Part shown: positions 286 through 17,878 of the stretch, in pieces | Layout of the letters: each line of letters begins with the position of its first letter | Numbering within the stretch: the first letter of the stretch is position 1 | IMG/VR virus record: IMGVR_UViG_3300040807_003060 | Coordinates: 1-28,916 of that record | DNA: 28,916 nt | DNA from: a virus | Taxonomy: Duplodnaviria; Caudoviricetes | Strand: one strand, 5' to 3' | Program-made: the position numbers and the translations under genes | The notes under the pieces: generated by a model | Databases searched by the model: none | Told to the model about the DNA's origin: nothing | Seen by the model: only the letters and a program-made list of their open reading frames with translations

Positions 286-324
286 TCATGTAACTGTGTG
301 TTATCGATACATACAGTTACATGA
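286..324 (+). promoter_or_regulatory. Inverted repeat/hairpin covering the ATG at 321, with a late-promoter-like GATACATA (306-313) inside
   Basis: TCATGTAACTGT (286-297) is the exact reverse complement of ACAGTTACATGA (313-324). The stem extends inward with G-U and Watson-Crick pairs (298-301 with 312-309). Confidence 0.65.
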
Positions 325-1280
325 ATACAAATAATCAAACTAAACGTTCCAAAGCAATATTTTTAAATGGTGGTATAGGTAGAATCCTATGTGCCATTCC
401 AGCAATCGAGAAATACCAAGAAGAATCAGGCGATGAAGATTTTATCGTTGTGATCGAAGGTAAGTGTAATATATTAGATGGTCATCCTACATTAGATGGC
501 AAAACATATGATATCATGCACAAAAATTTATTTCACACACATGTAAAAAATAGAGAAATTATTTCACCCGAACCTTACAGAGTATGGGAATATTTCAATC
601 AAAAGTGCAATCTATCGCAGGCATTTGATATTATTTTGAATGACAAAGGTGTTAGAGAATTACCTAAACCAAGAATTTTTCTTTCAAAAGAAGAAAAGAT
701 ATCTGCAGAAAAAGTTTTACAAGAATGTAAAGACAAAATTAAAGCAGACAAATATATTGTGTTTCAACCCTTTGGAAGAGCCATACAACAGATTGATCAA
801 AGTTTCGTGGACAAAAGTAACAGAAGCATAGACTTTAAAAATTTTAAAAATATCATTAGAAAATTACAAAAAGAAAATTACGGCGTGATTGTGATGAGTG
901 AGTTTGGCATCGAACTTAAAGATGAAAATTATGAAATGGAAGTTGCTCAACCAGAAAAAATAGATTTAAGAATTTGGGCATCCATAATTCAACAAGTAGA
1001 TCATTTTTTAGGTTGTGATTCAGTAGGACAACACTTTGCACACACACTTGATACACCATGCACAGTAATAACTGGAGCAACATTTCCAGAAAACACCACG
1101 TACCCAAATCAAAAAGGAGTTAGTGTTGTTGATTTAGGAATGAACGATAGACAGTACGATCCAATAAGAATAACATTTGACGAAAGAATTAGTAGAGTCA
1201 ATGAAAACGTAATGTTGATGACAGATGAAATAGAAAATTATGTTGTTGACACAATAATGGGAAGGCAAGAAGATGAATAA
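321..1280 (+). CDS. GT9-like (ADP-heptose heptosyltransferase-like) glycosyltransferase, paralog 1
   Basis: N-terminal GGIGRILCAIPAI (cf. GIGD..l..Pal), central VFQPFG, C-terminal WASIIQQVDHFLGCDSVGQHFAHTLDTPCTVITGAT (cf. GT9 aali..adl.ignDSgpmHlAaalg.p.v.lfGpT). Confidence 0.75.
   Translation: MNTNNQTKRSKAIFLNGGIGRILCAIPAIEKYQEESGDEDFIVVIEGKCNILDGHPTLDGKTYDIMHKNLFHTHVKNREIISPEPYRVWEYFNQKCNLSQAFDIILNDKGVRELPKPRIFLSKEEKISAEKVLQECKDKIKADKYIVFQPFGRAIQQIDQSFVDKSNRSIDFKNFKNIIRKLQKENYGVIVMSEFGIELKDENYEMEVAQPEKIDLRIWASIIQQVDHFLGCDSVGQHFAHTLDTPCTVITGATFPENTTYPNQKGVSVVDLGMNDRQYDPIRITFDERISRVNENVMLMTDEIENYVVDTIMGRQEDE
562..589 (+). repeat. 28-bp direct repeat, copy 1 (identical to 3303-3330)
   Basis: TTTCACCCGAACCTTACAGAGTATGGGA, encoding SPEPYRVWE in both GT9 paralogs. 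Confidence 0.9.
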
Positions 1281-3087
1281 TAAGACAGGTTATATCGCGG
1301 CTATTGCCAGAGGACACAATTCTGGCGTATGTTTGCTTAAAGATGGAAAAATAGTTTTTTCTATAGAAGAAGAAAGATTAAGTCGTGTAAAATACGATGG
1401 GGGACCATATGCATCAATGGTTAAAATTTTAGAATACACAGACAAGATTGACTATCTTGTAATTGCTCACACACAATCATTAAAAGACAGAAGTACAGGC
1501 AGAGTTGACTATAACGGCGACGATGTTTACACTGGACTTGCTAGAAAGTTAGGATTGATTGATAAACACGGAACTAAAAAAGGACCAGAACATCCACAAG
1601 TTATTGATTTATCTCATATTCATCACAAATTACACGCCGCATGTGCTTTTTACAGATCAGGCTGGGACGATGCCGCGGCATTAATTGTAGACGGTGCAGG
1701 AACTTTTATTCCAGCAACTCATAGTGCAGGTCATCAAATGACTGTGTTTGAAACAGAAACAATTTTTGATTGTTCATATCCTAATGATTTTACAACAATG
1801 TACAAACACTATGGTACAAGTGAAAACTGTCAGTGTGCATATATTCCAAATTATCCTTCAGATTCAATGGGAGAGCCAGGCAGTACACACGAAGCAGTGT
1901 TCTCGGACAGAGCAGGTATTGTTAAAGTGTATGAAGCAGTTACACAGTACTGTGGATTTTCAGCCATTGAAGCAGGAAAAACTATGGGACTGTTTCCATA
2001 TGGAAAACCAAATGATCAAATACCACCATTGTTTGTCCACAACGGAAAAGGAACATTGAGTGATAGAAATGTAATAATTCCTACATACCCAAATGCCGCT
2101 CTTGTGAACTATGACAACTATTACAGTTTAGAAGAAAAACTTGAAGTAAATCAAAACGACTTAACAGAATTACAAAGTCGCAGAGATCTTGCTTACTCTT
2201 GTCAAACATCGACCCAAGAAGAAGTTTTAAAATTAATCTATAAAGCAGTAGAAAAAACTGGCAAGAAGAAAGTTGTAATATCAGGCGGTTATGGTCTTAA
2301 TTGTGTGGCAAATTATTACTACCTTGATAGTTTACGCAAAGACGGTATAGAAATATACGTAGAACCAGTGTCTAACGATGCAGGTACAGCCATGGGCGCC
2401 GCTCTATTGTATTACTATTCATTAAAACAAACCACTGAAAAAGGAACAACAAAAAGTTTATACTTAGGACCAACATATAAACTAACCAACGAAGATATTA
2501 CAAAATACAATGACCTAGATGGTGTAGAAGTTGTTGACGCAAAAGATGAAGACATTGTTAAGTTGATGACTGAAAAAAACATTGTGGCATTGTGGCAAGG
2601 TCAATCAGAAAACGGTCCAAGAGCACTGGGAAACAGAAGTTTATTGTTTGATCCAAGGTTTAAAGATGGAAAAGACTTCGTAAATGGAGTAAAACATAGA
2701 GAATACTTTAGACCATTTGCAGGATCTATATTGCACGAATACACACATGATTGGTTTGATTTGAGAGGAATGGAAGAAACTCCTCACATGATGTATGCTG
2801 TAAATTGCAAACCTGGTGTTGAAGAAAAAATACCTAGTATTATACACGTTGATGGCACATGCAGAATACAAAGTGTTAAGCCAGAAGATAATAAACTGTA
2901 TCATAGACTAATCAGTAAATTCAATGAAATCACAAAATGTCCTATAGTGTTCAATACTTCATTTAATTTAGGAGGGGAACCATTAGTGGAAACTGTGGAT
3001 GATGCTGTAAGAACATTGCAAAATTCTGAAATAGAATATCTATATTTGATTGAATATGGAAAACTAATAAAGGTGACCAATGACTAG
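1273..3087 (+). CDS. O-carbamoyltransferase, NodU/CmcH/TobZ family
   Basis: HNSGVCLLKDG, EEERLSRVKYD, HHKLHA, IVDGAG, GKTMGL..YG, SGGYGLNCVAN, NDAGTAMGAA, ENGPRALGNRSLL, VKHREYFRPFA, HVDGTCRIQSV, NTSFNLGGEPLVET. Overlaps both neighbours by 8 nt. Confidence 0.95.
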   Translation: MNNKTGYIAAIARGHNSGVCLLKDGKIVFSIEEERLSRVKYDGGPYASMVKILEYTDKIDYLVIAHTQSLKDRSTGRVDYNGDDVYTGLARKLGLIDKHGTKKGPEHPQVIDLSHIHHKLHAACAFYRSGWDDAAALIVDGAGTFIPATHSAGHQMTVFETETIFDCSYPNDFTTMYKHYGTSENCQCAYIPNYPSDSMGEPGSTHEAVFSDRAGIVKVYEAVTQYCGFSAIEAGKTMGLFPYGKPNDQIPPLFVHNGKGTLSDRNVIIPTYPNAALVNYDNYYSLEEKLEVNQNDLTELQSRRDLAYSCQTSTQEEVLKLIYKAVEKTGKKKVVISGGYGLNCVANYYYLDSLRKDGIEIYVEPVSNDAGTAMGAALLYYYSLKQTTEKGTTKSLYLGPTYKLTNEDITKYNDLDGVEVVDAKDEDIVKLMTEKNIVALWQGQSENGPRALGNRSLLFDPRFKDGKDFVNGVKHREYFRPFAGSILHEYTHDWFDLRGMEETPHMMYAVNCKPGVEEKIPSIIHVDGTCRIQSVKPEDNKLYHRLISKFNEITKCPIVFNTSFNLGGEPLVETVDDAVRTLQNSEIEYLYLIEYGKLIKVTND

Positions 3088-4036
3088 ACATAGTGCGTTC
3101 TTTATGAACGGAGGAGCAGGAAGACATATCAGTTCTATACCTGCACTAGAATTATATGCAAAAGAAAATCCAGAAGATGATTTTATTGTAGTTTGTGAAG
3201 GTGGCACAGATGCATACAAAGGACATCCGTTATTGCATTTTAGAGCATATGATAATTGGCATAAAAATCTATTTCAAGATTTATTAAAAAATAGAAATCT
3301 TGTTTCACCCGAACCTTACAGAGTATGGGAGTACTATAATCAAAAATGTAGTCTAGCAGAAGCATATGACATCGCTATAAACAAAAAAGGTCTACGTAAA
3401 TTGCCTAAACCCAACTTATACATTTCAAAAGAAGAACTTCTAACAGCAAGGTCAATGTTGGCTGAAGTTAAAGAAAAAACAGGAAAAAATAAATTGGTTT
3501 TGATACAACCTTTTGGCAGAGGTGCTGAAAAGAAATCAGAAAGTGAAGTGGTAGATTTAACAGGAAGAAGTATAGAACTTAAAAATTTATGGTCAATTAT
3601 TAAAAAATTAAGCAAAGATTACGGTGTTATAGTGATGAGTGAATTTGGTTTAGAATTTAAAACACACGGTGGTATAAACAAACCAGTGGCACTGCCTCTT
3701 AATACACACATTAGAATATGGGCCGCTATGATTAAGCAGGTTGATCATTTTGTAGGGTGTGATTCAGTGGGTCAACACCTTGCTTATGCATTTGACAAAA
3801 CAATGACTGTGCTTATTGGAAGTACATTTCCTATTAACACGTCCTTTCCAAACGATGATAAAGTAGATATTATTGATTTAGGCGAAAAAAGCAGGATATA
3901 CAGTCCAATCAGAATTACAAGTGATGAATATTCTGATCGATTAAACGAAGGTATTATGGAAATGGACGACAATCAAGAGCAGAAAGTAGTAAATTCTATC
4001 AACTTCATGCTCAAAAACAAACATAAAAAAAAGTAG
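3080..4036 (+). CDS. GT9-like glycosyltransferase, paralog 2
   Basis: GGAGRHISSIPAL, IQPFGRG, WAAMIKQVDHFVGCDSVGQHLAYAF; colinear with 321-1280 along its full length. Confidence 0.75.
   Translation: MTRHSAFFMNGGAGRHISSIPALELYAKENPEDDFIVVCEGGTDAYKGHPLLHFRAYDNWHKNLFQDLLKNRNLVSPEPYRVWEYYNQKCSLAEAYDIAINKKGLRKLPKPNLYISKEELLTARSMLAEVKEKTGKNKLVLIQPFGRGAEKKSESEVVDLTGRSIELKNLWSIIKKLSKDYGVIVMSEFGLEFKTHGGINKPVALPLNTHIRIWAAMIKQVDHFVGCDSVGQHLAYAFDKTMTVLIGSTFPINTSFPNDDKVDIIDLGEKSRIYSPIRITSDEYSDRLNEGIMEMDDNQEQKVVNSINFMLKNKHKKK
3303..3330 (+). repeat. 28-bp direct repeat, copy 2
   Basis: Identical to 562-589. Confidence 0.9.
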
Positions 4037-4058
4037 TTTTTCAATTTCATAAAAGTTA

Positions 4059-4088: not shown

Positions 4089-4586
4089 ATGTTTGACGTA
4101 TCACGACTATTTGGAAAAGGAATTAGAAATACCTTACTGCTTAAAAACGGTTTACAACTGTCCTACAATGGGCCTTATGTAGTTGTTAGACCAGACACAG
4201 TAATGGATCAATTCCACGTTAATACCTTTTGTACAGCCGAGTACACTGTGTCTGTTGATTATGACACAAACAACAAAGAACTAATAAAAATTTTAGTAAG
4301 TGCAACACCATCTAACAGTTCTGTTACAATTTATGGCAGAAGCAACATGGGCAACGAACTAGTTACAGTTTCTAGTACTGTTAATAATTCATACGTAAGA
4401 ATTGTGCTAAATCCAGCAATAAAATCACCCACAGAAACTTATGCAGGAGCAAAAGTAATTTTTAGTGCAACGTATTTTCAAACTCAAAATGCTTTACAAG
4501 GTGGAGCATCTGAACTGATAAATGCTGGAAACGACTATGATCGATCAAATGTTAACCAAGATAATAACGGAGGCAGTGGATACTAA
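4089..4586 (+). CDS. Putative virion structural protein (single beta-rich domain)
   Basis: DQF....F.TAEYTVSV....NKELIKILV......S.VTIYGRSN.G.EL.TV.......VRI.LNP resembles a beta domain repeated in large T4-like virion proteins. First gene of the operon with the two fibre-like proteins. Confidence 0.55.
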   Translation: MFDVSRLFGKGIRNTLLLKNGLQLSYNGPYVVVRPDTVMDQFHVNTFCTAEYTVSVDYDTNNKELIKILVSATPSNSSVTIYGRSNMGNELVTVSSTVNNSYVRIVLNPAIKSPTETYAGAKVIFSATYFQTQNALQGGASELINAGNDYDRSNVNQDNNGGSGY

Positions 4587-4588: not shown

Positions 4589-6466
4589 ATGCCAATTAAT
4601 TACAAACAATTTGAAGCACAATCAGGTTTTAAGAGTCCGGGATTCACAGTTGATGATAAAGGTAATGTTGTAGTAAGAACTATAACTGAAACTTTCATTC
4701 CAACTCCAGTTATTGCCGCTCCAGATTATAGTGTAACTGAATCAGAAGGAGCATTCAATATTACTGGACTAGTTGGCAATAATCCTACTATCACTTTGGT
4801 AAGAGGTGAAACAAAAACAATTGGATTAAATTTAGAAAATTTAGGATTTAATATATTTTCCCCTAGTGATGCAGACCCCAATTTACCTGGTACACTTTTC
4901 AATGAAGGATTAAAACATGCCAATGTTGTTACAGGCAATATTATTGCAACTGGAGAATGGACTTTCACACAAACTTGGTTACAAGAAACCGATTTTGAAA
5001 GAAAAGTAAAAATTACAGTGCCTGATTTAGAAATTGAAACTCAGTTGGTAGGAAAAAAACTGCCTGTGGTTATTGCACTACATGATGTATCAGGTTCAAT
5101 GACTGAAGTTTCTAATAACGTAAATTTTATCACAGACAAAGTTGTTATAGCACCACAAGGTTACAAAAATACTTGGAATATTGGTTACAGTATCAGTAAA
5201 TCAGATGATGTTGCTTTGATAGACAGCATATTAACGCAATTAGAATCTTATGACAATGTAGATACTAAAGAAATTACATTGATAGGTTATGGTGTGGGTG
5301 GCCAACTAGCACAACAATATGCAATTCAAACACAAAATAATAATATTAAAAATTTAGTTCTTATTTCAAGTCTATTACACTTTGATCAACATAAATTAAC
5401 CTTTACTGATCAAAATGAAAGAATAGACACTTTTTATTCAATTGGATTGAATCCACAGGTAGAGGATGATTCAACAGAAATAATATGGACACCAACAACA
5501 CCATTAGTTGGAAGAAACATTTTAATGTTCCATGGAACAAACAATTTAAATTGGCCATACGCTGGAGGAACAGCAAATGGTTTAGATTTAACAGGTGCAG
5601 AAAACACAATTTATGCCTGGGCAAGAGCAGAAAATGAAATTGCAGATCAATTGTCAGAAGGTGTAGCACTGCCAACAGGAGAATTACTTTACAATTATAA
5701 AAATGGAGCAATAAAACTTTATGCGTATGAAGGAGTAGGAAGTAATTTTGGAGATTATCAATCTAGCATTCAAACTTATATCACCGACACAATTACTCAG
5801 ACAACTTTTGAAGATGTTCCAGTACCAACAACTTTGACAGGAGCAAATGCTCAAAATCAATCATTGGGTACAATCACAATCACAACACCTGTTGATGCTC
5901 CAGACACATTGTTCTACGGAGACGGAGATTCAGACCCAGTAGGATTGATTAGTGTAGAAGATCCCACATTTACTGGAATTGGAAGTTTCAGTGCCATACT
6001 TAACACTGGCGATTTGATTAACAATGGTCAGGATGCAGAAATTTCACTTGCACCAACAGGCAGTTACAGTTCGGTAGTTATCAATCCAGCGGGTGGAGGG
6101 TTTATATCAAACCTAGATATCAATGCAAAATCTTTTAGAACACTGGGACAAACTACTTTAACTCCGGTTAATGCCGATGTAGTTGTTTCTCCTCAAGGAT
6201 CAGGTGTACTGACTGTGTCACCTACTAATTTAGGCACCGTAGACAACGTAGATATAGGACAAACCACAGCAAGAAAAGGTACCTTTTCACAATTAGAAAC
6301 CAGTCAAGGAACGTTAAATAACACTACAATAGGAGCAACTGTTCCGGCATCTGGAGCATTTTCTAGTGCCACAGTGACCAGTGCGCCTACGGAAGCAAAC
6401 GATGTTACAACAAAAACTTATGTGGACAACACGTCAACAGTGTTGGCAATTGCATTAGGAGTATAA
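4589..6466 (+). CDS. Fibre-like virion protein with an inserted degenerate alpha/beta-hydrolase (PHB-depolymerase/LpqC-like) domain
   Basis: aa ~120-403 carry LPVVIALH, APQG...WN, DDVALI, GYGVGG, HGTN..WPYAGG. The C-terminus has two G...N..IG.T....G.FS repeats, a DVTTKTYVD neck-type motif and a terminal AIALGV, all typical of phage fibre proteins. Confidence 0.75.
   Translation: MPINYKQFEAQSGFKSPGFTVDDKGNVVVRTITETFIPTPVIAAPDYSVTESEGAFNITGLVGNNPTITLVRGETKTIGLNLENLGFNIFSPSDADPNLPGTLFNEGLKHANVVTGNIIATGEWTFTQTWLQETDFERKVKITVPDLEIETQLVGKKLPVVIALHDVSGSMTEVSNNVNFITDKVVIAPQGYKNTWNIGYSISKSDDVALIDSILTQLESYDNVDTKEITLIGYGVGGQLAQQYAIQTQNNNIKNLVLISSLLHFDQHKLTFTDQNERIDTFYSIGLNPQVEDDSTEIIWTPTTPLVGRNILMFHGTNNLNWPYAGGTANGLDLTGAENTIYAWARAENEIADQLSEGVALPTGELLYNYKNGAIKLYAYEGVGSNFGDYQSSIQTYITDTITQTTFEDVPVPTTLTGANAQNQSLGTITITTPVDAPDTLFYGDGDSDPVGLISVEDPTFTGIGSFSAILNTGDLINNGQDAEISLAPTGSYSSVVINPAGGGFISNLDINAKSFRTLGQTTLTPVNADVVVSPQGSGVLTVSPTNLGTVDNVDIGQTTARKGTFSQLETSQGTLNNTTIGATVPASGAFSSATVTSAPTEANDVTTKTYVDNTSTVLAIALGV
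6457..6461 (+). promoter_or_regulatory. Shine-Dalgarno (AGGAG) for the 2327-aa gene
   Basis: 9 nt upstream of ATG 6471, supplied by the LGV codons of the upstream gene. Confidence 0.6.
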
Positions 6467-6470: not shown

Positions 6471-9400
6471 ATGGCTAAACGTAAAGTAACAAATTATATA
6501 TTTCAACCAGGGATACCTAAATCAGGAAATCTATATCCTAATGCTTATGATTTAATTCAAAACAATTTAGAATTTTTAAAAGATGAGTCAGTAGGATATG
6601 TTGCTGAAAGAGTAGCAACTGATTCAGCGGCAAATGAATTTCCAAACGCAGTAAACAAACTTACAAACAATATAGAATACATCAAAGATGAAATAGCGGC
6701 ATACGTTGCACAACAAAAAGCATCCAGTGTTCCACCTTTTGCAGGTTATACATATGACGCTTTACAATTAGAGACAACTATTGATACTTGGTTAACTGGA
6801 CTTAATAAAGATTTAAGATATGGTGGAAATGAAAACACAAATTTATTTGTACAAACTTACTTCCAAGATGGATCATTATTAATTAATGGAGATGGTGAAC
6901 CAGAAGTTGCTTATTTTGAATATGCTAGAAATTTAATTATAAACTACATTTTACCTGGCTCAGCATTCAGTAGTCTTCAAGGAATTACATCACAAGACAC
7001 TTCAGGAGCATCAGCAGAAGCAAACGGAGTAACAACATTTACTACACTAGCAAATGGTTTTATCAATACACTAGATAATGGAATTATAAATTTACCAACC
7101 TTGGTCAGCAGTTCTTATATATTTGCAGGTTACACATATGATTCAGCAAAATGTGAAAGAGACATGGCTTATAATATTAATGGATTTTTAAATGATTTAA
7201 GATATGGTGGTAATCAAGAATCGAGATTCAATGCATCAAAGTATTGGATTGGATCTACTCCACAAATTGACGGCGACAGACAACCAGAAGTATTAGTAAA
7301 AAATTATATTAGAGATGTAATCAATAATTACATTTTAACAAGAACGCAAGTTGTATCCAAACAATCACCAATTGTTACCACACAATACTTGGGAACAACA
7401 CCAGGTGAAGCAGGAACATCTGCACGTATCACTGCATTGACTTTTATTATCACAGATGTAATCGCAAATGGATTAGACAATCTTCCAGATTTAGAAAGAA
7501 ATCAGATCAGTTCAATCAAAGCACCAGGAAAAATAAGTTTAGATGATGTGTTGTTGATCACAAACACAACAAGAAACAAAGTGTTGTACAACTTTGCAGA
7601 TGCAACTCTTGGAGCAGAGATCTCATACGAAACAGAACAAGATCCAGATTATCCAACTTTTTTACAAAACACCGACACAGTTAGCACTGTGTTCTTAAAC
7701 TTTGATACCAGTACGTTTCTTGAATCAGATTCTATTCAAATGTTCGTGGAAGACGGAGTGATTAGAACCAGACCTTACGACTTTGGAACAGATGCAATTG
7801 AAAGAATGAGAGTTGCACCTGCTCAATCAATGCTTGACGCTGACTTTGAATATGGACTTCAGCCAACCAAGTGGCAAGCAATTGGAACTCAAAGAGGTTA
7901 TCCATCAATTTATGAAATACCAGGCACGGATATAGATGTAGACACAGTTTTAACTGATGCTTCTGCAGGAACAGAAGGAATTGGTTCGTCACTTATCACC
8001 GTGAATACAGTTGGACCGCATGCTTTCGAACCTGGTGATGCATTTACAATTATCGGGTTTACTAATGGAATACCAGGCACAGGTAGAGCACAAGGTTCAT
8101 TTGTTGTGAACACAATTCCTACAACAAGACAGTTTACATATTACGCAAAAGCAAAAGTAGGATCAGTTAATGGATCAGAAATACACACAACCTTTACACA
8201 ATTGCGTAAAGCAGGATTTTATTCTGGAGCAACAATTGGAAGACCATCATTTAGTGTTGCATCTAATGGTGCAAATGGAGATTTTATAACTCCAATTGGA
8301 GCACAATCAGGAACAACAATTATTCCATTCCAAGATGCAGATTTACCAGAGATTGGATCACCTTTAACAGGAACAGGTGTAGCAACTGGTACACAGATCA
8401 CAGCAGTCACAGGAACAGGAAGCACATTGGCAACTCCTGAAGTTGAAGGCGATTACACTGCGGGTACAACTGAAATCAACGTGGTTGATTCTGCAGGCAT
8501 TTTACAGAACAGTGTGATAGACAGAGGTGATGGATTTGGAATTGCAATCACAAATGTTTCAGGAAACACTTTAACACTGAGCTCAGGATTATCACAAACC
8601 TTGATAGGAGATAGAACAATCTATTCAAATGTAGGAGGATTCAATGTCAATCCTGCTGGTCAGAATTTTGTGTGTGATGTTTTTAACAACGGGGGAATAT
8701 ACAGTATTACAATTACCAACTCTGGTGAAAACTATGAAGTTGGTGATGCTATTTTGATCACGGGAGATTTAATAGGCGGAGCAACACCTGCCAATGATTT
8801 AACAATATCGGTTGAATCTGTAGATACAGGTGGAGAAGTTTTGACAACATCATTAGATGGTGAAGCATTTACAGGTTCAGGAACACAAACAAACCTTTCT
8901 GGAACATACAACAACGGAGCAGGAGTAGGTGGAACTTTTGATGTGACAAAAACAAACAATGCCTACAGTGCTACTCTGCTTGATCCAAGTTTTACAGCAG
9001 TAGAAGGCACAGTGACTGGTGGATCAGGAGCAGGTTTAGTAATTGATGTGACTTTAACAAATAATGTTTATTCAGTGACACTTTCGGGTGACGATGCAAG
9101 TACAGGATATCTAGCAAACGATGTTGTTGAATTTACAGGTGGTAACTTTGCTGGTAACACAGATAATAATCTTTATTTGAGAGTAACAGGTGTAGACGGG
9201 AGTGGTGCAATTACAACCTTTACAACTTCTGGAACAGGTCCAGATGCACTAGAAAGTTATGTTGTAGGAATAAACGACTACACAACAAATTCGGTTGCAG
9301 GATCAGGTGCTACATTCTCAGTAACCAGACAAGGCACAACATACACAGCAACAGTTACCGGATTGGGTTCAGATTTTGCACAGAATGAAACAATTACTGT

Positions 9401-12400
9401 GCTTGGAAGTTTTTTAGGTGGTGTTGATTCCACCAACGATCTCACAATCACTATAGATTCTGTAGACGGTGGTGGTGGTGTTTTAACAATCACTCCAACT
9501 GGTACAGCGGCAAACACAAAATCATTTCTTGCTGTAAACACAGGTTCAAACTTACTTGGTAATGGGGCTAGTTTTAATGTGGAATTATCAGGTGCAACAT
9601 ACAACACAATAACAGTAAACAATGCTGGACAAAATTATGGTATTGGTCAAAATCTTGTTATTCCAGGAACTTCACTGGGTGGTGCAACACCGACAAATGA
9701 TTTAACACTTCAAATTACAGCAATCACAGGCACAAGAGGTATAAGCACATTCACAGCAAGCGGATCAGCGGCTACAGGCGGTACATCGGGCTTTGTAGTT
9801 GGTGATCAAATCAAGGCTGAAGGTTCTAACCTAGGTGGTGTAACAGGAACCAATGATGCTATAATAAAAGTTACAGCAGTAAACGGAGATTCTTCAATAA
9901 ACACAGTGACTGTCTCAGGCACTGCCACAGATGCTGTGGTAGTAATCGAAAATCCTACCTACACAGGCGGATCGGGTGCAGGTGCTAATTTTGAAATCAC
10001 TAGAACAGGCACAGTGTACAGTGCAGTGGTGGCTCCAGCAGGAACAGGATACAACGTTACAGATCAGTTTGTAATTGCAGGAACAGAACTAGGTGGATTA
10101 TCTCCTGCAAACGATTGTACAATTGATGTTGATTCTATAGATGGCAGTGGTGGTGTAGCAACTTTCACAGTTACAGGTACAGCAGTCAATACACAAACAT
10201 TTACAAATGCAACAGTAAGCAATCTGTCTGGACAGAATGCATCATTTGATATAACTTTGAATGCAGGAGTTTACAGTATTGTTGTGAACAATCCTGGACA
10301 AGATTACGGATCAGATCAAACATTTACCGTGCTGGGTACAGAATTATTTGGCATATCACCAGACAACGATGCAACAATCACTGTAACAAGTATAAATGCA
10401 ACAGGCGGCATCACAGGAGCATCTATTTCTGGCACAGCCAACTCAGGTAGTGCAAGTACTTTGGGTGCTACAGGTTCAAACAGACAACCACAAGGTGTTG
10501 GAGCAACATTCAGCGTAACAAGATCCACAACAGACGATTCGTCAACCAGTTACACAGAAGTAGTAATATCAACAAGCGGTTCAAATTATGCTGTTGGAGA
10601 TAGAATGACTCTACAAGGACAAAGTTTAGGCGGATCATCTCCGGCAAATGATGTCACAGTTAGAGTACAATCTATTGGTACAAATGGTGACGTGTTAGCA
10701 AATACACACACGGGTACAGCGGCTTCGGGAACAGGAATATCAGTTTACTCAAGTATAACAGTTTCTGAACCAACCAACAACAGTATTCCAAGTGCTACAA
10801 CATTGACATATGCCGCATTGGCAACTATGCAAGTTGACTTTGAAACTCCACACGGACTTGTGCCTGGAGATTCGTTCTTAGTTACAATTCAATCAGATGA
10901 TGGTAGTAACAATCACTTGTTAGCATCAGGACCGTTTTTAGCAACATCAATTCCAAGTCAATCTCAATTAAGATACCAAGTGAGAGCTCCAGGCACAATT
11001 ACAGATACAGCATGGCAAGGATTTATTTACGTAAGACCAGATTCATTCTTTGTTCACAGACCATTTGATGGTGGTGTACAATTGGGTACTGGAGGTCCAC
11101 AACACGGATCACAAGCAATACGTCAAAGTAAAAAATACATTAGATATCAATCAGGTAAAGGTATCATGTACACAACTGGTGCCTTGTTTGCACCAAGTTA
11201 TGACTTATTAAATGTTACAGCAGATGGTACTGCTGTGGGTTCAACAATTACAGTGACAACCGATGACACAGACCATGGTTTACAAGTAGGTGCTAGAGTG
11301 AGATTGATCGGTATTCAAACTTCTGGATACAACAATTATTACACTGTGGCAAGTGTAATAGGTGAAAGACAATTTACAGTTTTAGCAGTTCAATCTTTGG
11401 GAGGTACATTAGCAGAGTTTGGTGATCAACCTCAAGTATCATTGTCCAATTGGAATGGAGCAACTGTGCGTTCAGGAACATTTGATGATCAAAACGGTAT
11501 TTTCTGGCAGTATGATGGAACAAATTTATCATTCGTACAAAGAACATCAACAAGACAGATGACAGGAACTGTGACAGTGACTCCAGATTCAAACACAGTA
11601 ACAGGTGTCGATTCGAGATTTAGAGAACAAGTAAAAGCAGGTGACAGAATTGTTATCAGAGGTATGACACACGTGGTAAACCAAGTTACATCCAACACAG
11701 AAATGTATGTGACTCCGGATTACAGAGGTGTTAATAGATCAGAAGGAGTCAAGGCTTGTTTGGTATTAGACAAAGTAGCGAAACAATCAGAGTTCAATTT
11801 AGACAAACTTGATGGCACAGGCCCAAGCGGATACAATTTTGATCCAGGCAAGATGCAGATGATTGGGATACAATTTTCATGGTATGGTGCAGGTTTCATT
11901 GATTTTATGACCAGAGGAGCAAATGGTAATTTCGTTTTCGCACACAGAATGCGTAATTCAAACGTTAACACAGAAGCATTCATGAGAACAGGTAACCAAC
12001 CTGTGCGTTATGAAGTGGCCAACGAAGGACCTAGTGGAAAACTAGAATCTAATGTTAATGCTACTGCAACTGAACTGCCTTTAATTGATGCTTCTTTCTT
12101 TCCACCAACAGGTGGTACTGTGTACGTTGACAACGAAATTATCACATTCACAGGAGTTGAAAACGATAAATTGACAGGTTGTACTCGTGGAGCACAATTA
12201 ACAAACTTTGCTTCAGGAGCCACCAGAAACTACACGGCTGGTATTGCTTCAGAACACTTTAGAAACACCGGAGTGGTATTGATATCCAATACGTCATCAC
12301 CAATTATATCACACTGGGGATCAGCATTTATTACAGATGGTAACTTTGATGAAGACAGAGGATACTTGTTCAGTTACTCTGCAACAGGGTTAGACATCAC

Positions 12401-13454
12401 AACTACTAGACAGACAGTGTTCCTATTGAGATTGGCTCCTTCAGTGTCCAACGCATTAACTGGTGATTTGGGTGATAGAGACTTGTTGAACAGAGCCCAA
12501 TTGTTATTGGATGGATTAGAAATTACCACAGAGGATCCAGTAGCGGGTCAAGCCGCAGGTCAGATTGTAATCAACGGAATTCTAAATCCACAAAACTATC
12601 CAGTTGATCCAAGTGATATTGGTTGGACAGATTTAACAGGAGTTGCACAAGGTGGTCAACCATCATTTGCTCAAATTGCTCCAGGTGGTTCAGTTGTATG
12701 GAACTCAGGTACAGTTTCGACCACAGCCAATGCATTAACCACAAACGCAATGACATCCACATCAAATCACTGGTTTAACTTGGGAGGTAACAGAAACTAT
12801 GCATACTTCCTACAAGCAGATTGGGAGAACAAAGGTCACGTAGTTGGTATGGAAGTTACTTCTTCACAGTTCCCAGCAGGTACAACTGTAACACAGATTC
12901 AGGACAGAGGAAACTACTACTTGGTGTACTTCTCTCAGAGACACACAGGTATAAATGGTGGTCAAGCAGTAGACTTCAGTTATGGTGGAAATATTGCAAA
13001 CTCCAACTACCTATTCTTCCAAGAAGCATCTTGGTTAGCACTGGGTGCCACAACTGGTACTGAAGTTGATGTAGACACCAGCACAGAATTTCCAGCAGGT
13101 TCTTCTATTGTTTCGATTGCACCGGTAACAACATTTGGTACTACAAACTACTATCGTGTTACATTTAACCAATCATTCAGTGGCACAATATCAGGTGGTT
13201 CTGCTGTTTCATTTAAATTTGGTCAACCTCCATATGCACAACCGGGTCAAAGTATTTTCTCATTTGTTGCACAGCCTGGAGAAAGATCAACACTTGCATT
13301 GAACACAATCCAAGAATTGACCAACACCACACTGGGTGGCAGAGGTACGTTCCCTAATGGTCCTGACGTGTTAGCAATTAACATTTTCAGAACTGGTGGT
13401 ACAGGTGGTGTTAATGCAACAGTTACACTGCGTTGGTCTGAAGCACAAGCGTAA
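6471..13454 (+). CDS. Giant (2327 aa) Gly/Thr/Ser-rich virion structural protein, tail-fibre or baseplate associated
   Basis: Two helical YTYD...DLRYGGN repeats, DADFEYGLQPTKW, about eight ~85-aa beta repeats (G.GA.F.V.....Y......G.Y...D.....G..LGG.P.ND..I.V....G.....GTA), HGL..GD/HAF..GD small beta domains, C-terminal LRWSEAQA. Confidence 0.8.
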   Translation: MAKRKVTNYIFQPGIPKSGNLYPNAYDLIQNNLEFLKDESVGYVAERVATDSAANEFPNAVNKLTNNIEYIKDEIAAYVAQQKASSVPPFAGYTYDALQLETTIDTWLTGLNKDLRYGGNENTNLFVQTYFQDGSLLINGDGEPEVAYFEYARNLIINYILPGSAFSSLQGITSQDTSGASAEANGVTTFTTLANGFINTLDNGIINLPTLVSSSYIFAGYTYDSAKCERDMAYNINGFLNDLRYGGNQESRFNASKYWIGSTPQIDGDRQPEVLVKNYIRDVINNYILTRTQVVSKQSPIVTTQYLGTTPGEAGTSARITALTFIITDVIANGLDNLPDLERNQISSIKAPGKISLDDVLLITNTTRNKVLYNFADATLGAEISYETEQDPDYPTFLQNTDTVSTVFLNFDTSTFLESDSIQMFVEDGVIRTRPYDFGTDAIERMRVAPAQSMLDADFEYGLQPTKWQAIGTQRGYPSIYEIPGTDIDVDTVLTDASAGTEGIGSSLITVNTVGPHAFEPGDAFTIIGFTNGIPGTGRAQGSFVVNTIPTTRQFTYYAKAKVGSVNGSEIHTTFTQLRKAGFYSGATIGRPSFSVASNGANGDFITPIGAQSGTTIIPFQDADLPEIGSPLTGTGVATGTQITAVTGTGSTLATPEVEGDYTAGTTEINVVDSAGILQNSVIDRGDGFGIAITNVSGNTLTLSSGLSQTLIGDRTIYSNVGGFNVNPAGQNFVCDVFNNGGIYSITITNSGENYEVGDAILITGDLIGGATPANDLTISVESVDTGGEVLTTSLDGEAFTGSGTQTNLSGTYNNGAGVGGTFDVTKTNNAYSATLLDPSFTAVEGTVTGGSGAGLVIDVTLTNNVYSVTLSGDDASTGYLANDVVEFTGGNFAGNTDNNLYLRVTGVDGSGAITTFTTSGTGPDALESYVVGINDYTTNSVAGSGATFSVTRQGTTYTATVTGLGSDFAQNETITVLGSFLGGVDSTNDLTITIDSVDGGGGVLTITPTGTAANTKSFLAVNTGSNLLGNGASFNVELSGATYNTITVNNAGQNYGIGQNLVIPGTSLGGATPTNDLTLQITAITGTRGISTFTASGSAATGGTSGFVVGDQIKAEGSNLGGVTGTNDAIIKVTAVNGDSSINTVTVSGTATDAVVVIENPTYTGGSGAGANFEITRTGTVYSAVVAPAGTGYNVTDQFVIAGTELGGLSPANDCTIDVDSIDGSGGVATFTVTGTAVNTQTFTNATVSNLSGQNASFDITLNAGVYSIVVNNPGQDYGSDQTFTVLGTELFGISPDNDATITVTSINATGGITGASISGTANSGSASTLGATGSNRQPQGVGATFSVTRSTTDDSSTSYTEVVISTSGSNYAVGDRMTLQGQSLGGSSPANDVTVRVQSIGTNGDVLANTHTGTAASGTGISVYSSITVSEPTNNSIPSATTLTYAALATMQVDFETPHGLVPGDSFLVTIQSDDGSNNHLLASGPFLATSIPSQSQLRYQVRAPGTITDTAWQGFIYVRPDSFFVHRPFDGGVQLGTGGPQHGSQAIRQSKKYIRYQSGKGIMYTTGALFAPSYDLLNVTADGTAVGSTITVTTDDTDHGLQVGARVRLIGIQTSGYNNYYTVASVIGERQFTVLAVQSLGGTLAEFGDQPQVSLSNWNGATVRSGTFDDQNGIFWQYDGTNLSFVQRTSTRQMTGTVTVTPDSNTVTGVDSRFREQVKAGDRIVIRGMTHVVNQVTSNTEMYVTPDYRGVNRSEGVKACLVLDKVAKQSEFNLDKLDGTGPSGYNFDPGKMQMIGIQFSWYGAGFIDFMTRGANGNFVFAHRMRNSNVNTEAFMRTGNQPVRYEVANEGPSGKLESNVNATATELPLIDASFFPPTGGTVYVDNEIITFTGVENDKLTGCTRGAQLTNFASGATRNYTAGIASEHFRNTGVVLISNTSSPIISHWGSAFITDGNFDEDRGYLFSYSATGLDITTTRQTVFLLRLAPSVSNALTGDLGDRDLLNRAQLLLDGLEITTEDPVAGQAAGQIVINGILNPQNYPVDPSDIGWTDLTGVAQGGQPSFAQIAPGGSVVWNSGTVSTTANALTTNAMTSTSNHWFNLGGNRNYAYFLQADWENKGHVVGMEVTSSQFPAGTTVTQIQDRGNYYLVYFSQRHTGINGGQAVDFSYGGNIANSNYLFFQEASWLALGATTGTEVDVDTSTEFPAGSSIVSIAPVTTFGTTNYYRVTFNQSFSGTISGGSAVSFKFGQPPYAQPGQSIFSFVAQPGERSTLALNTIQELTNTTLGGRGTFPNGPDVLAINIFRTGGTGGVNATVTLRWSEAQA
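8621..10730 (+). repeat. Array of about eight degenerate ~85-aa repeats within the giant protein
   Basis: Recurrent signature: IGGATPAND, FAGNTDNN, LGGVDSTND, LGGATPTND, LGGVTGTND, LGGLSPAND, LFGISPDND, LGGSSPAND. Confidence 0.85.
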
Positions 13455-13589: not shown

Positions 13590-14009
13590 TTACAATAATT
13601 TTTTTGCTATATTCTGCTGATCAGCAGGATTAACAGGAGCCTTTTGTCCATCGCCAGGAATAACTCTGTAGTTGTCATCCGGATCATCCATTGTACTAAC
13701 TTCTGTTACACTGCCTGTATCAGTTGTACAAATTAATTGGTGTGGCAATAATGGAGGATTGTGCCATGTGTCACCGGTCTTTAAAGGTTTTTCGTAAAGT
13801 GTTGCAGTTTTTGTATCTATGTACCTTAATTTGAATTCACCGTCGTTAACAAACCAAGTTTCGTCTTTGTTTTTATGAAAGTGCATAGAAAATTTTGCAT
13901 CTTTTTTTGTAAAGACTAAGAATTTTCCACAATAATGTTCATTAGAAGCCCATATAACTTCGTAGCCCCAGCCTTTTGTTATTTTACCATTCTTATTGTG
14001 CGTTGACAT
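13590..14009 (-). CDS. Cupin-fold putative sugar(-phosphate) isomerase (type II PMI C-terminal/D-lyxose isomerase-like)
   Basis: KGWGYE, FSMHFHKNKDETWFV..G, PPLLPHQL, EVST...DDNYR: cupin H-x-H-x4-E...H metal site. Confidence 0.75.
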   Translation of the reverse strand: MSTHNKNGKITKGWGYEVIWASNEHYCGKFLVFTKKDAKFSMHFHKNKDETWFVNDGEFKLRYIDTKTATLYEKPLKTGDTWHNPPLLPHQLICTTDTGSVTEVSTMDDPDDNYRVIPGDGQKAPVNPADQQNIAKKLL

Positions 14010-14805
14010 ATTGTTCTACAGTGCTCCAATCTATTTTTACTAATCTATTTACTTTAGAATTGTCTGCCTTGGTGTAACTTTGATAATGCTGTTTTACACT
14101 GTCAGGCATGGGTATTTCTTCTATGTTAGCATTGTGTTTTTTGGCAATTATTTCTGCCACACGTTTAAAACTGGTGCAAGAACCGGTTCCAACATTGTAA
14201 ATTCCTGATTTATCTACATCAAGCATTTGTTTGTGTACCTCACAAACATCATGCACCGAAACAAAATCTCTTTGATAATGCTCGCTATTTTTAAAAATTT
14301 TTATTGTGTTATTGTCTTTTGCTTGTTGAACAAATTTACTCACCGGACTCATTTGATTTCCTTTGTGTTCTTCATGAGGACCATACACATTAAAGTATCT
14401 AAAACCTTGCACCAACACATTGAATTCGCCTGCTAGTTTAACAAATCTATCAAAAAGATATTTACTCCATGCATAGGGAGATTGAGGATGACAGTCGCTT
14501 TCTTCGTTGAACTCGTGTGTGTTTCCATAAACTCCTGCTGAACTGGCATATTGAAAGTTTGTTCCCATCTGTTCACACATCTGCAACAATCTCATGCTGT
14601 ACTCGTAATTTTGTGTTAAAATTTTATCAACATTTGTTTCTGTGGTTGAACTAATTGCACCTAAATGGATAATCCAATCGTATTTAGAAGCATCTGGATA
14701 AACATTGGGAGTATATTCAAATCCTTCAACTGTGTGATTTTTACTCAAATGATTAATAAGGTTTTTTCCTATAAATCCGTCACTGCCTGTAACTAAAATT
14801 TTCAT
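13993..14805 (-). CDS. hldD: ADP-L-glycero-D-manno-heptose 6-epimerase
   Basis: TGSDGFIG, HLGAISSTTE, YASSAGVYG, YAWSK (YxxxK), RYFNVYGPHEEHKG, RDFVSV.DV, YNVGTG, YQSYTKAD. Confidence 0.92.
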   Translation of the reverse strand: MKILVTGSDGFIGKNLINHLSKNHTVEGFEYTPNVYPDASKYDWIIHLGAISSTTETNVDKILTQNYEYSMRLLQMCEQMGTNFQYASSAGVYGNTHEFNEESDCHPQSPYAWSKYLFDRFVKLAGEFNVLVQGFRYFNVYGPHEEHKGNQMSPVSKFVQQAKDNNTIKIFKNSEHYQRDFVSVHDVCEVHKQMLDVDKSGIYNVGTGSCTSFKRVAEIIAKKHNANIEEIPMPDSVKQHYQSYTKADNSKVNRLVKIDWSTVEQYVNAQ

Positions 14806-15591
14806 TTAATATCCAAAATATTGATACTTGCCTGCCCATTTAAATTTTGTGTAGTACAAGTTTGTTTTATCTATCATATTAACATCGATCTCGTCATTTG
14901 TCAAATAGTGATTTAAAAATTCATTGTTTTTGATATCTAAATCAAGTTTTGGTGCCAAGTATTTTTTCACCCAACGGGCATAGGTATTAATAGATGGATG
15001 CCTGTCTTGATCTATTTTTTGTTTTTTAGTAAACAAACTTATGGAGTCTGCGTCTTTGTATTTCACATTAACTACTGGACTATTTGATTCATCTGCATGA
15101 AGTTGGATTGGTTTTATCCAATTACTATAAATGTTTTTATTATGAACAAATTCCTTATCTGACAATATTTGTGGTAAATCCACACTGCTGGTTACTGCCC
15201 ATTTACAAGGTAGGTTTTTTAAAAAATTTATCGTCATACTGATATAGTTGTGATTCATGTAGGCATAACTGTCTTCATTCCATGTGTCTCTAATCCAAGG
15301 TTCTTCACTGGGTTTCATCCAAATGTTTCCTCCTGCACGCCAATTTCCGAAAGGCAATATACCAATGCTATGCATATCAATTCTATTCAAATCTGTAAAC
15401 TGCACAACCACAACATCATCTTTATTCAGTGCGTTAGATGTTACGGCTTCGTTCAGTCTTTGCATGATTGCATTGTTACCCAAACCACTGATAGCCCAAT
15501 TTTGATAATCGTCAAACTGATGTCCTAAAAGATCACTCCACGTGGGCCAATAGTAGTTGGTATAACTGCATCCAAAAGTTAACAATTTCAT
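14806..15591 (-). CDS. SGNH-like hydrolase/acyltransferase-fold protein
   Basis: FGCSYT (block I Ser), SGLGN (block II), VVVQFT...R.D, DRHP (block V). Confidence 0.6.
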   Translation of the reverse strand: MKLLTFGCSYTNYYWPTWSDLLGHQFDDYQNWAISGLGNNAIMQRLNEAVTSNALNKDDVVVVQFTDLNRIDMHSIGILPFGNWRAGGNIWMKPSEEPWIRDTWNEDSYAYMNHNYISMTINFLKNLPCKWAVTSSVDLPQILSDKEFVHNKNIYSNWIKPIQLHADESNSPVVNVKYKDADSISLFTKKQKIDQDRHPSINTYARWVKKYLAPKLDLDIKNNEFLNHYLTNDEIDVNMIDKTNLYYTKFKWAGKYQYFGY

Positions 15592-16205
15592 TCTGCTTTA
15601 TCACACCATTTTTCAATTTGATTCCACACTTCAACATCTATTATATCTTTGTACATAGAGTCTTCCACATATCTGGGAATAAAATTTATATTGATTGCAA
15701 CACGTGAATTAACATCTGTGCATGTGGATCCAGAGTGTTTCATGTTGCTTGGAAACAAAACTAATCTGTTTTGTACACTTTCAATTTGGTCTCCATCTTC
15801 AAATGCTGTGTAGCCATTATTGGTGTTGCAGTAATAAATTCCTGTGATGCTAAAAGGAACCATACAATCAACATGGAATCCGTGCACCACTACTTTGTCT
15901 GCTCTGGGCACAAGATTGGCTTTTATCCTAACAAAAGTATTAGGGTGTATTCTGTTGAAAATTGGAAACAGTGCTTGCCAATTATTTTGTTCAGTGACTA
16001 TATTTCCATCTTCTCTTAACAAATGATGTGTAAATTGATATTGATAATTTTCTGTGCCGTCTTTTATCATGGTTTCGTCCACAACATAGTTTTTAAAATA
16101 CCATGGAAAATGCTCTCCAACATATATTTCATTGATAGCATCTGCTTCTGGTTTAGGACACAGATTATCTATTATGATTTTATTATTTTTTATTGTTTTC
16201 TGCAT
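15588..16205 (-). CDS. 2OG-Fe(II) oxygenase (prolyl-hydroxylase-like phage family)
   Basis: HGFHVD (HxD), IYYCNTNNGYT.F, NRLVLFPSNMKHSG (distal His), RVAININF (2OG-binding Arg). Confidence 0.88.
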   Translation of the reverse strand: MQKTIKNNKIIIDNLCPKPEADAINEIYVGEHFPWYFKNYVVDETMIKDGTENYQYQFTHHLLREDGNIVTEQNNWQALFPIFNRIHPNTFVRIKANLVPRADKVVVHGFHVDCMVPFSITGIYYCNTNNGYTAFEDGDQIESVQNRLVLFPSNMKHSGSTCTDVNSRVAININFIPRYVEDSMYKDIIDVEVWNQIEKWCDKAE

Positions 16206-17451
16206 TACGTTTAACCTTTTCCGTTAAGTTTGTAGTAGAAAAACCTTTGACAGTGGGAAATATAACAACTTCAGCCATCTCATTTCCCACAGTTGTTTCC
16301 ACTGTGTAATCTCCGCCTTTTACAATAACATCTGGCGATATATTCTTTATTGCTTGTTTAGGAGTGTCCTCGTCAAACACAACAACATCATCTACCCATG
16401 GTAGTTGTTTCAGTTGATTCTGTCTTTCATCAACATTATTGTAAGGTCTAGATTCGCCCTTTAATCTTTTCACGCTGTCATCGGAATTAATACCTACTAT
16501 CAATATGTCTCCTTGAGCCTTGGCAAATTTAAGTAATTCTAAATGTCCAACATGTAGTAAATCAAAAACGCCATTTGTCCAAACAATTCTATCTTCAATG
16601 TCATTTTTTTCAACCACAGTTACTCCTCTGTGTTGTACCACTTTATTGGCTCCTTTAAGTGCTTTAGCACAAGATTCTTCCATGCTGATTCCTTGTTCGT
16701 GATAATGTATAATAATTGCTAACACAGTGTCACCTGCTCCACTTACATCTGCTAGTTCTACTTTGTTTCCTTTTATGTGTTTATAAAAATTTTCTCCTAT
16801 CACATGAATCCCATTTGCTCCATCGGTTACTATAAGCCATTTCCAATCATTTTCTAATCTATGTTTGTTGGCATCAGCAGGCACAAAATTACCAAACCAT
16901 TTTTGGTATTCACTCATGTTGGGTTTACACAGGTAAACACCTTTGTACACATCAGCAGTTTGTTTTGGATCAACATATACACGCTTTGCTGTCGTCATTA
17001 ATTTTGATACTAGGTCTTTTTTGATCACACCTTTGTTGTAATCACTGACAATCACGACATCTGTTGACTGTAAACTATCCAGTAGAATGTCTGTGGAAGT
17101 TTTTGCTGTGTACATTTGTTCTTTGTCTAATCTTAATAAATGAGTTCCATCAGCGCCTATCATTCTAGTTTTGGTAGTTGTTACATCTGCATCTTGATCA
17201 ATGTGTGTTTTTATGTTTTTTTGAAGCAGTATTTCTCTGATTTTGTTTCCTGGAGTGTCTTGACCCACTGAACTGTAAAGATGCGTGTCTGCGCCGAGAT
17301 TTGACAGGTTTAAAGCGAGGTTTCCTGCTCCGCCTATGTTGTAATCTCGACTGTGTTCATGTAACACAAGGGCGGATGCTTCAGGAGATACTTTAGTACA
17401 TTCTCCCTGTACCCAAACATCCAACATTATGTCTCCTATAATCTTAATCAT
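16183..17451 (-). CDS. hldE: Bifunctional heptose 7-phosphate kinase / heptose 1-phosphate adenylyltransferase
   Basis: PfkB domain: GDIMLD, VSPEA, GGAGN, TTTKTR, SDYNKG, VDPK, KPN..E, DVSGAGDT. Nucleotidyltransferase domain: TNGVFDLLHVGH, NSDDSVKRLKG..RP, FDEDTP, KGGDY, GFSTT. Confidence 0.95.
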   Translation of the reverse strand: MIKIIGDIMLDVWVQGECTKVSPEASALVLHEHSRDYNIGGAGNLALNLSNLGADTHLYSSVGQDTPGNKIREILLQKNIKTHIDQDADVTTTKTRMIGADGTHLLRLDKEQMYTAKTSTDILLDSLQSTDVVIVSDYNKGVIKKDLVSKLMTTAKRVYVDPKQTADVYKGVYLCKPNMSEYQKWFGNFVPADANKHRLENDWKWLIVTDGANGIHVIGENFYKHIKGNKVELADVSGAGDTVLAIIIHYHEQGISMEESCAKALKGANKVVQHRGVTVVEKNDIEDRIVWTNGVFDLLHVGHLELLKFAKAQGDILIVGINSDDSVKRLKGESRPYNNVDERQNQLKQLPWVDDVVVFDEDTPKQAIKNISPDVIVKGGDYTVETTVGNEMAEVVIFPTVKGFSTTNLTEKVKRNAENNKK

Positions 17452-17878
17452 CTAAAAATTTGATAATTTTGAACACAGTTTCCAATTTAGTTTGATTGGT
17501 TTTAGATTGCAAAGTTTTTCTGAGTCCTTGATGTAAAGGTTTAGGCCAATGATTAAAACTACACCATGCATATCCATTGTGTTCTTTGTTTAATTTTGGT
17601 AAAAATTCTGGACCAACAATACACAAATATGTGTGATATAAAAATGCTTCGTCATTACTAATAAAAGTTTCCATTGGAATAGTTTTTAATATTTTAACAT
17701 CACCAACTTCTTCTTTAATCTCACGTTGAAGTCCTTCCCATGGACGTTCATTAGTGGTCATGCCTCCAACTAATCCCCACACTCTGTTCTGTTTGCTTTG
17801 AGTCCTGTGTAGCAATAAAAAACGATTAGTTTCTTTGCTGTAGAATAATGCACCGCACCCAATAATCTTCTTGGTCAT
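17444..17878 (-). CDS. Nudix hydrolase
   Basis: Canonical Nudix box G-GMTTN-E-RPWEGLQ-REIKEEVG (Gx5Ex7REUxEExG); EH.GYAW downstream. Confidence 0.9.
   Translation of the reverse strand: MTKKIIGCGALFYSKETNRFLLLHRTQSKQNRVWGLVGGMTTNERPWEGLQREIKEEVGDVKILKTIPMETFISNDEAFLYHTYLCIVGPEFLPKLNKEHNGYAWCSFNHWPKPLHQGLRKTLQSKTNQTKLETVFKIIKFLDD

Follow-up and report, generated by a model that had tools for sequence, protein, structure and literature searches.

ADP-heptose is made and epimerised by HldE and HldD, and enzymes of the NodU type O-carbamoylate sugars. The described systems closest to the one presented here are the lipopolysaccharide (LPS) heptosyltransferases WaaC, WaaF and WaaQ (CAZy GT9, PF01075), the heptosyltransferases Aah and TibC with their protein substrates (PMC4358343), and gene clusters of cyanomyoviruses. 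As far as the available parts of these sources go, 24 genes of P-SSM2 were called LPS genes by Sullivan et al. (PMC1079782), capsule decoration or a metabolite was proposed by Iyer et al. for a cluster of S-SSM6a (PMC7824862), glycosyltransferases of the pelagimyophage host-recognition region were taken as O-chain modifiers (PMC7029224), and those of cyanophages are treated as cell-wall or DNA modifiers (PMC12801897). For two decades, such sugar clusters in ocean phages have been catalogued under host LPS or metabolite genes, with no target demonstrated. The stretch of DNA analysed here (the window, 28,916 nucleotides, IMG/VR record IMGVR_UViG_3300040807_003060) is a 28.9-kb fragment of a large uncultured myophage. 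It carries a heptose and carbamoyl module with two transferases of the GT9 fold in which an arginine appears to replace the catalytic aspartate. The module is real and conserved, and its gene set is already known in print as LPS, capsule or metabolite genes; the target given here is predicted. We tentatively propose, at somewhat less than even confidence, that these transferases are S-heptosyltransferases acting on cysteine and form a family widespread in viruses. Such GT9 enzymes, with Arg in place of Asp, would attach heptose or carbamoyl-heptose to tail fibres at dozens of cysteines, and unrelated fibre folds would have evolved surface cysteines as attachment sites.

The two transferases, copy a (321..1280, plus strand) and copy b (3080..4036, plus strand), are 50% identical, contain a GGIGR motif and belong to phrog_8954 (E 2.6e-127 for copy a). 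An earlier note on this DNA called them GT9-like. The PF01075 scores of 21.7 and 18.4 bits (E 1.4e-4 for copy a) lie under the Pfam cut-off of 22 and do not secure that name, but the GT9 fold of a copy b model does. In the PDB, no useful match emerged when the transferase or its profile was used for sequence searching; the fold search succeeded. The model, built from 60 sequences with a predicted local distance difference test (pLDDT) score of 91.8, has a Z-score of 24.4 to 3tov, 22.1 to WaaF, 20.2 to TibC and 19.1 to WaaC, with the next fold class at 12 and other glycosyltransferases at 12 or less. The top five structural matches are GT9-type (Z 19.1-24.4, root-mean-square deviation 3.1-3.8, 252-282 aligned residues), and Foldseek agrees.

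The catalytic base of WaaC is Asp13, located after the first strand of the N-lobe. Arg15 of the phage GGxGR sequence aligns with the aspartate of the WaaC SSMGD sequence, in a profile alignment that is weak (probability 4%, E 0.01). Arginine occupies this base position in 368 of 369 open reading frames (ORFs) from the collected loci and in 94 of the 98 distant representatives covering the column; aspartate is found in none. In the C-lobe, residues D228, S229 and H233 of a D-S-x-x-x-H motif are invariant in 60 sequences and align with the motifs of WaaF and WaaQ; the D-T/S-G-x-x-H sequence there is the nucleotide-sugar motif of the GT9 LPS heptosyltransferases. With its GT9 fold, arginine for aspartate and retained C-lobe motif, the protein looks like a heptosyltransferase with altered acceptor chemistry. 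The family is large, comprising 4145 clusters at 90% identity and 147 at 50% (E up to 1e-30). Two pattern scans of 185,579 bacterial and archaeal genomes, based on short patterns of limited sensitivity from two distant alignments, gave no copy in a cell genome, and the Aeromonas enzyme as sole query retrieved no viral locus.

The phage enzyme resembles WaaC, WaaF and WaaQ in the GT-B fold, the C-lobe D-S/T-x-x-x-H motif and the ADP-heptose genes alongside. However, it has arginine for the N-lobe aspartate, is only 10-15% identical, occurs in a tail-gene context and scores below all family cut-offs. With Aah and TibC, as described in the accessible part of PMC4358343, it shares the heptosyltransferase fold and a gene adjoining that of a protein substrate with a likely adhesin role. 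The N-terminal beta-barrel of TibC (residues 1-97) is missing, the 318-residue model aligning from its first residue to TibC 92-391 only. The four-cysteine iron finger of Aah and TibC is missing as well: one invariant and one nearly invariant cysteine are present in the 60 sequences, and copy b has three cysteines in total. Arginine stands at the place of the catalytic Asp110 of TibC (by the weak profile mapping), and the partner proteins are Cys-rich, not Ser/Thr-rich. On this one defining residue the transferase appears, from its sequence, to fall outside both the LPS enzymes and the Aah/TibC family.

The same genes occur in the cyanomyovirus clusters (the P-SSM2 LPS genes and the second cluster of S-SSM6a), as T4-GC 302-308 in P-SSM2 and S-SSM7 and gp154-148 in S-CAM3. 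In the portions of PMC1079782 and PMC7824862 at hand, the GT9-fold gene, its arginine and Cys-rich fibre genes are not named, and host-surface or metabolite roles are proposed. The present locus differs in its fused HldE and doubled transferase, and belongs to a larger myophage of another group. The 7-O-carbamoyl-heptose system of Pseudomonas (WapO/PA5005) likewise has heptose and carbamoyltransferase genes in one cluster, but in the available text of PMC8005017 the acceptor is LPS and WapO is putative. Sugars on cysteine exist in protein S-glycosylation (glycocins and S-linked N-acetylglucosamine, S-GlcNAc); glucose, N-acetylglucosamine and hexose, not heptose, are listed in the accessible part of PMC9877059, where the words phage and virus do not occur. 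Phage-encoded virion glycans also exist in mycobacteriophages, but on the capsid and tail tube (cited in an excerpt of PMC12619734). Searches of the open-access literature found no report of heptose attached to phage proteins or to cysteine.

The ORFs named in the earlier note are all present and form two convergent blocks. The order on the plus strand is transferase a, carbamoyltransferase, transferase b and proteins of 165, 625 and 2327 residues, and that of the minus-strand block is Nudix hydrolase, hldE, 2-oxoglutarate (2OG) oxygenase, SGNH-like gene, hldD and cupin. Profile matches support the identities given for HldE, HldD, the NodU-type carbamoyltransferase, the cupin, the Nudix hydrolase and the 2OG-type oxygenase. 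The bifunctional HldE (heptose-7-phosphate kinase and adenylyltransferase, 16183..17451, minus strand) matches PRK11316 (E 9e-89) and both domain models; its scores are below the equivalog cut-offs, HldE models rank first, and the best PDB matches are the heptose kinase 4e84 and the nucleotidyltransferase 5x9q. HldD (ADP-heptose 6-epimerase, 13993..14805, minus strand) reaches 247 bits with TIGR02197 (cut-off 275) and is matched best in the PDB by E. coli HldD (E 5e-47), with the YxxSK and EHKG motifs aligned. The NodU/CmcH-type O-carbamoyltransferase (1273..3087, plus strand) scores 102 bits with PF02543 and 187 bits with PF16861, both above cut-off, and its PDB matches are GdmN, the novobiocin carbamoyltransferase and TobZ (E 1e-43 to 1e-51).

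In total, 166 loci were fetched with transferase queries, and the 83 with 5 kb on both sides were used for the counts below. The carbamoyltransferase adjoins the transferase in 80 of the 83. A unit of transferase, carbamoyltransferase, HldE (fused or split), cupin, HldD and usually a HAD phosphatase recurs after the tail-fibre genes of P-SSM2, S-SSM7, S-CAM3 and Sf-FS3, and also across 80 IMG/VR loci. The gene blocks are not distributed independently: the enzymes form one conserved unit at the tail-fibre region in two myophage groups, which favours a virion target.

The cupin (13590..14009, minus strand, PF07883) has hldE nearby in 21 of 22 loci and hldD in 22 of 23; it has no informative PDB match. 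Neither a SIS domain in the window nor SIS_2 in 10 related records, three of them complete genomes, was found, where the control was positive in 9 of 14. Gene order suggests that the cupin replaces GmhA, the sedoheptulose-7-phosphate isomerase, and it is a candidate for a new enzyme of this kind. Many relatives have a HAD gene next to the cupin; none of five close, fragmentary records matched one, in a search made without a positive control. The cupin is labelled cysteine dioxygenase in PHROGs and joins hldE and a HAD gene in phages lacking gmhA, including P-TIM68, S-T4 and S-SM2. In records of the latter type, short genes labelled phosphoheptose isomerase resemble HAD phosphatases. The heptose genes of these three phages are located in other, multi-transferase sugar clusters, without a phrog_8954-type transferase and without the adhesins described below.

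Three minus-strand neighbours had also been counted as tailoring or accessory enzymes. The SGNH-like call (14806..15591) is weak by profile (PF13472, 13.9 bits, E 0.08), with motifs resembling blocks I, II and V seen by eye; at many loci its relatives are encoded between the transferase and the carbamoyltransferase, and the protein is likely a tailoring enzyme of the module. The Nudix hydrolase (17444..17878, PF00293) was rejected as a member, since it travels with the gp15-like gene, adjoining it in 14 of 14 cases and being near hldE in only 5 of 12. The 2OG-Fe(II) oxygenase-like gene (15588..16205, PF13640, E 4e-4) was likewise rejected as a variable passenger, rarely matched beside the module in relatives.

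The proteins most closely linked with the transferase are encoded just upstream of the window. Positions 1-14033 are 97.7% identical to positions 6922-20954 of locus L001. The left end of the window contains the 3' end of a gene for a protein of 217 residues (20..271, plus strand, no Pfam match), complete in L001 at 6539-7192. There, three adhesin-like proteins of 321-344 residues (Cys content 8-10%, Gly content 14-17%) are encoded ahead of it and after a long fibre gene. This gene family, or a similar one, adjoins the Cys-rich genes in most loci, and from its position the product is likely a fibre-assembly chaperone. The first adhesin-like protein (model pLDDT 67) has as its best PDB match the cyanophage Pam3 tail fibre (E 7e-4), which is likened to the S16 gp38 adhesin in the available part of PMC9942802.

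A Cys-rich ORF is located within 3 kb of the transferase in 82 of the 83 loci (31 of 32 clusters at 70% identity), and a relative of the 2327-residue protein within 6 kb in 56 (16 of 32 clusters). The Cys-rich link is kept after inversion of the enzyme unit, and the adhesin family is present in all four complete cyanophage genomes with the transferase and in none of five without it. Among 3292 ORFs, a set that includes loci L086-L227 found with adhesin queries (these are outside the count of 82), 715 are Cys-rich; 711 belong to the adhesin family, and each of the other four lies within two genes of the transferase in other phages. The number of cysteines is even in 211 and odd in 251 of 462 adhesins, without an even bias, and 557 of 901 aligned cysteines are outside conserved columns. 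A tblastn search of the phage collection with one adhesin gave no match, although the profile finds the family in those genomes; a low-complexity filter is the likely cause.

The association extends to other phage lineages and other folds. The N4-like Vibrio phages D505 and SBP1, contig L234 and Aeromonas phage HJ05 have the transferase only, among tail genes, and the tail proteins beside it contain 41, 41, 58 and 23 cysteines. In the N4-like proteins with 41, 41 and 58 this amounts to 2.3-7.6%, compared with 0.2-1.2% in three orthologues from phages without the transferase. When the L234 protein is aligned with that of 1.224.A (23-32% identity), 27 of 39 cysteines face E, S, N, T, Q, D, R or K. 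The genes just upstream of distant transferase copies encode RCC1-like propellers (28 cysteines each), polyglycine fibres (44 cysteines) and beta-rich proteins (34 and 62 cysteines). Of 33 distant loci of this kind, a neighbour reaches a 9% Cys window in 12, and the upstream sequence is shorter than 1.3 kb in at least 12 of the remainder. The gain of scattered cysteines in unrelated folds and the loss of the general base both fit a thiol acceptor. As separate observations, at L373:4725-6997 and in L320 a tandem pair of RCC1-like propeller genes, most repeats of which contain Cys-Cys, stands directly before a distant transferase copy, and the 522-residue beta-rich protein with 62 cysteines (L426:5407-6975) precedes the transferase in an unrelated-looking virus contig.

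These features allow us to propose the following pathway. HldE and HldD would make ADP-heptose, with the cupin standing in for GmhA and the phosphatase step presumably supplied from elsewhere in the genome or by the host. The Arg-type transferases would then put heptose on fibre cysteines in S-linkage, the acceptors being the three Cys/Gly-rich proteins whose genes lie shortly upstream of the window. A thiolate acceptor would need no general base and could be steadied by the arginine. In thioglycoside chemistry thiols need no base; an open-access literature search for base-free thiol acceptors returned nothing to the point. The carbamoyltransferase would then carbamoylate the heptose, an acceptor that gene order points to. 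Such a sugar coat may alter host recognition or protect the fibre. That some virion protein is glycosylated by the module is rather probable. The S-linkage itself, heptose on fibre cysteines, is predicted from genes alone and is given close to, though below, an even chance. If true, S-heptose would be a linkage new to proteins, the enzyme would be a thiol-selective glycosyltransferase of natural origin, and the host-recognition proteins of phages would gain a chemical layer; the cysteine link is a sharp prediction, testable on cultured P-SSM2, S-SSM7, S-CAM1 and SBP1.

Several points weigh against cysteine S-heptosylation. The evidence consists of genes, fold and neighbourhood, and the sugar, the linkage and the activity are all predicted. 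The mapping of Arg to Asp is a weak profile alignment combined with a fold match, and the other conserved acids E40 and E78 could be the base for a hydroxyl acceptor. Neither gmhA nor gmhB is present in the window. Some adhesin cysteines are conserved and could be disulfides, as fibre cysteines can be; disulfides anchor the Pam3 fibre, according to the accessible part of PMC9942802. The loci are related by descent, so that the counts overstate independence, and the N4 alignments are only 23-39% identical. In the distant search, a neighbour with a 9% Cys window was present at just 33 of the 59 flanked loci that are of the nearer type; among the 26 others, 17 reach 6% (some of these proteins being small and probably metal-binding) and 9 do not. 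The transferase of L380 and L388 is placed among other sugar enzymes, and the adhesin family was found in none of five records of the L409/L380-type lineages, which are 14-83% complete. In L409, L412 and L416 the transferase and heptose genes directly follow a relative of the 2327-residue protein, of 1882 residues and with 6 cysteines.

The two large proteins enclosed by the enzyme blocks had been regarded in the earlier note as Ser/Thr-rich fibres bracketed by their own modification genes. Their Ser+Thr contents of 19.7% and 21.2% are those of ordinary structural proteins of the window (tail sheath 19.0%, tube 19.7%), and the bracketing is not general: L061-063, L065, L066 and L076 have both blocks without any of the three enclosed genes between them. 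The 625-residue probable virion protein (4589..6466, plus strand, phrog_2576, 0 Cys) is not a plain fibre and carries an alpha/beta-hydrolase-like insert, with weak hydrolase matches at residues 154-280; its relatives range from 164 to 738 residues. In this insert (about residues 150-400) a glycine stands at the place of the nucleophilic serine of the G-x-S-x-G motif. The insert is perhaps an inactive binding domain on a virion protein, and the protein is probably not the glycosylation target. The 2327-residue virion structural protein (6471..13454, plus strand, phrog_5838, 5 Cys) has partial relatives in 109 phage records, among them those of the transferase-free phages S-PM2 and Syn1, and full-length relatives beside the module in S-CAM1 and S-CAM3. 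It is a linked but dispensable neighbour of the module.

The earlier note had favoured O-heptosylation of Ser/Thr in these two proteins, as by Aah and TibC. This reading, with another residue as the base and the adhesin cysteines structural, is now considered unlikely. TibC is among the closest folds, the 2327-residue family is near the module in two thirds of the counted loci and in the two S-CAM phages, and the transferase of L409, L412 and L416 lies next to a Cys-poor relative. However, there is no aspartate at the base position, and TibC D110A loses activity, as stated in the available text of PMC4358343. The Ser+Thr content is also no higher than that of sheath and tube, P-SSM2, S-SSM7, Sf-FS3 and the L061-type loci have the module without a 2327-residue neighbour, S-PM2 and Syn1 show the reverse, and the best-correlated partners are the Cys-rich fibre proteins upstream. 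Somewhat more doubtful again is another anionic acceptor, such as phosphate or carboxylate on a fibre or glycan, or a partner protein that binds a sugar nucleotide without transferring it, the cysteines forming disulfides or metal clusters. Arginine would suit any anionic acceptor, and a chloroplast NDH subunit has the fold of copy b (Z 20.1), so the fold need not mean transferase activity. Cys makes up at least 70% of eleven adhesin columns and C71-C72 is invariant, which together with the Pam3 disulfides agrees with a structural role. What this leaves unexplained is the scattered gain of cysteines in unrelated folds, mainly where the enzyme adjoins.

Remodelling of host LPS or capsule with heptose and carbamoyl groups, as in the Pseudomonas core, to block other phages seems improbable, although it is the published reading of phage sugar clusters (PMC1079782, PMC7029224, PMC7824862, each as far as accessible). 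The nearest folds are LPS heptosyltransferases, carbamoyl-heptose occurs in Pseudomonas LPS (WapO, in the part of PMC8005017 cited), and in P-TIM68, S-T4 and S-SM2 heptose genes do lie in multi-transferase clusters, away from the Arg-type enzyme. Yet cyanobacterial LPS is without heptose and Kdo, according to an excerpt of PMC4515613, and cyanophages carry the module; the unit stays in tail-fibre regions, even when inverted, and the two cell-genome scans, with their limited sensitivity, gave no transferase. The synthesis of a small secondary metabolite or the modification of phage DNA is the least probable of these explanations. A metabolite was proposed by Iyer et al. for the S-SSM6a cluster (PMC7824862, in its accessible part), the closest solved carbamoyltransferases come from antibiotic pathways, and genes for halogenases, methyltransferases and 2OG oxygenases come and go beside the module. 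Against this, the N4-like Vibrio and Aeromonas phages retain the transferase alone between tail genes, and in the annotated genomes inspected the unit is not beside replication genes. S-heptosylation of fibre cysteines is the reading we prefer, at the tentative strength given above.

Other features of the window are of a more local kind. A 16-bp RNA hairpin is located at 286..324 (plus strand), its 3' arm containing the start codon of transferase a; its energy of -22.6 kcal/mol (z -6.1) was equalled in none of 200 shuffles. It may delay translation of transferase a or end the upstream transcript. Similar sequence is found upstream in L003, L004 and L006, not in L005, and other inverted repeats were seen by eye upstream in L032, L036 and L037. 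The 165-residue protein (4089..4586, plus strand) has no family match; its gene is near the transferase in 54 of the 83 loci, usual in the phage group of the window and absent in others. The late-type promoters formerly ascribed to the enzymes were not borne out: ATAAATA occurs at 5 sites in the window, against 9.7 expected by chance, all before structural genes outside the region 321..17878 and none before the enzymes. The looser TAAATA precedes the 165-residue gene, the Nudix gene and the cupin gene, and in relatives 42 of 124 distinct upstream regions contain it, a count without a shuffle control. At 20910-20939, ATAAATA sites stand back to back, with divergent late-type transcription of a 466-residue gene and the neck gene. 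To the right of the module, profile matches identify tail sheath, two tube-like genes, neck, a gp15-like gene and a deoxynucleoside monophosphate (dNMP) kinase; the window contains no tRNA genes. Completeness is estimated at about one half for related records of 169-185 kb, which suggests genomes near 360 kb.

Variation of the module in other phages is also worth recording. Distant transferase copies in L380, L388, L398, L420 and L431 are located in dense clusters of glycosyltransferases, methyltransferases, 2OG oxygenases and a TPR-containing protein, which are possibly larger glycan systems. Second carbamoyltransferases insert into the module in several phages. Genes resembling Trp halogenases are found in it at L083:22511-23998 (annotated in S-SSM7), with a similar-looking gene in L410 and genes of similar size in L253 and L281. 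At L274:4163-5330 and L383:7911-9003, genes that resemble heme oxygenase and bilin reductase by eye follow the module.

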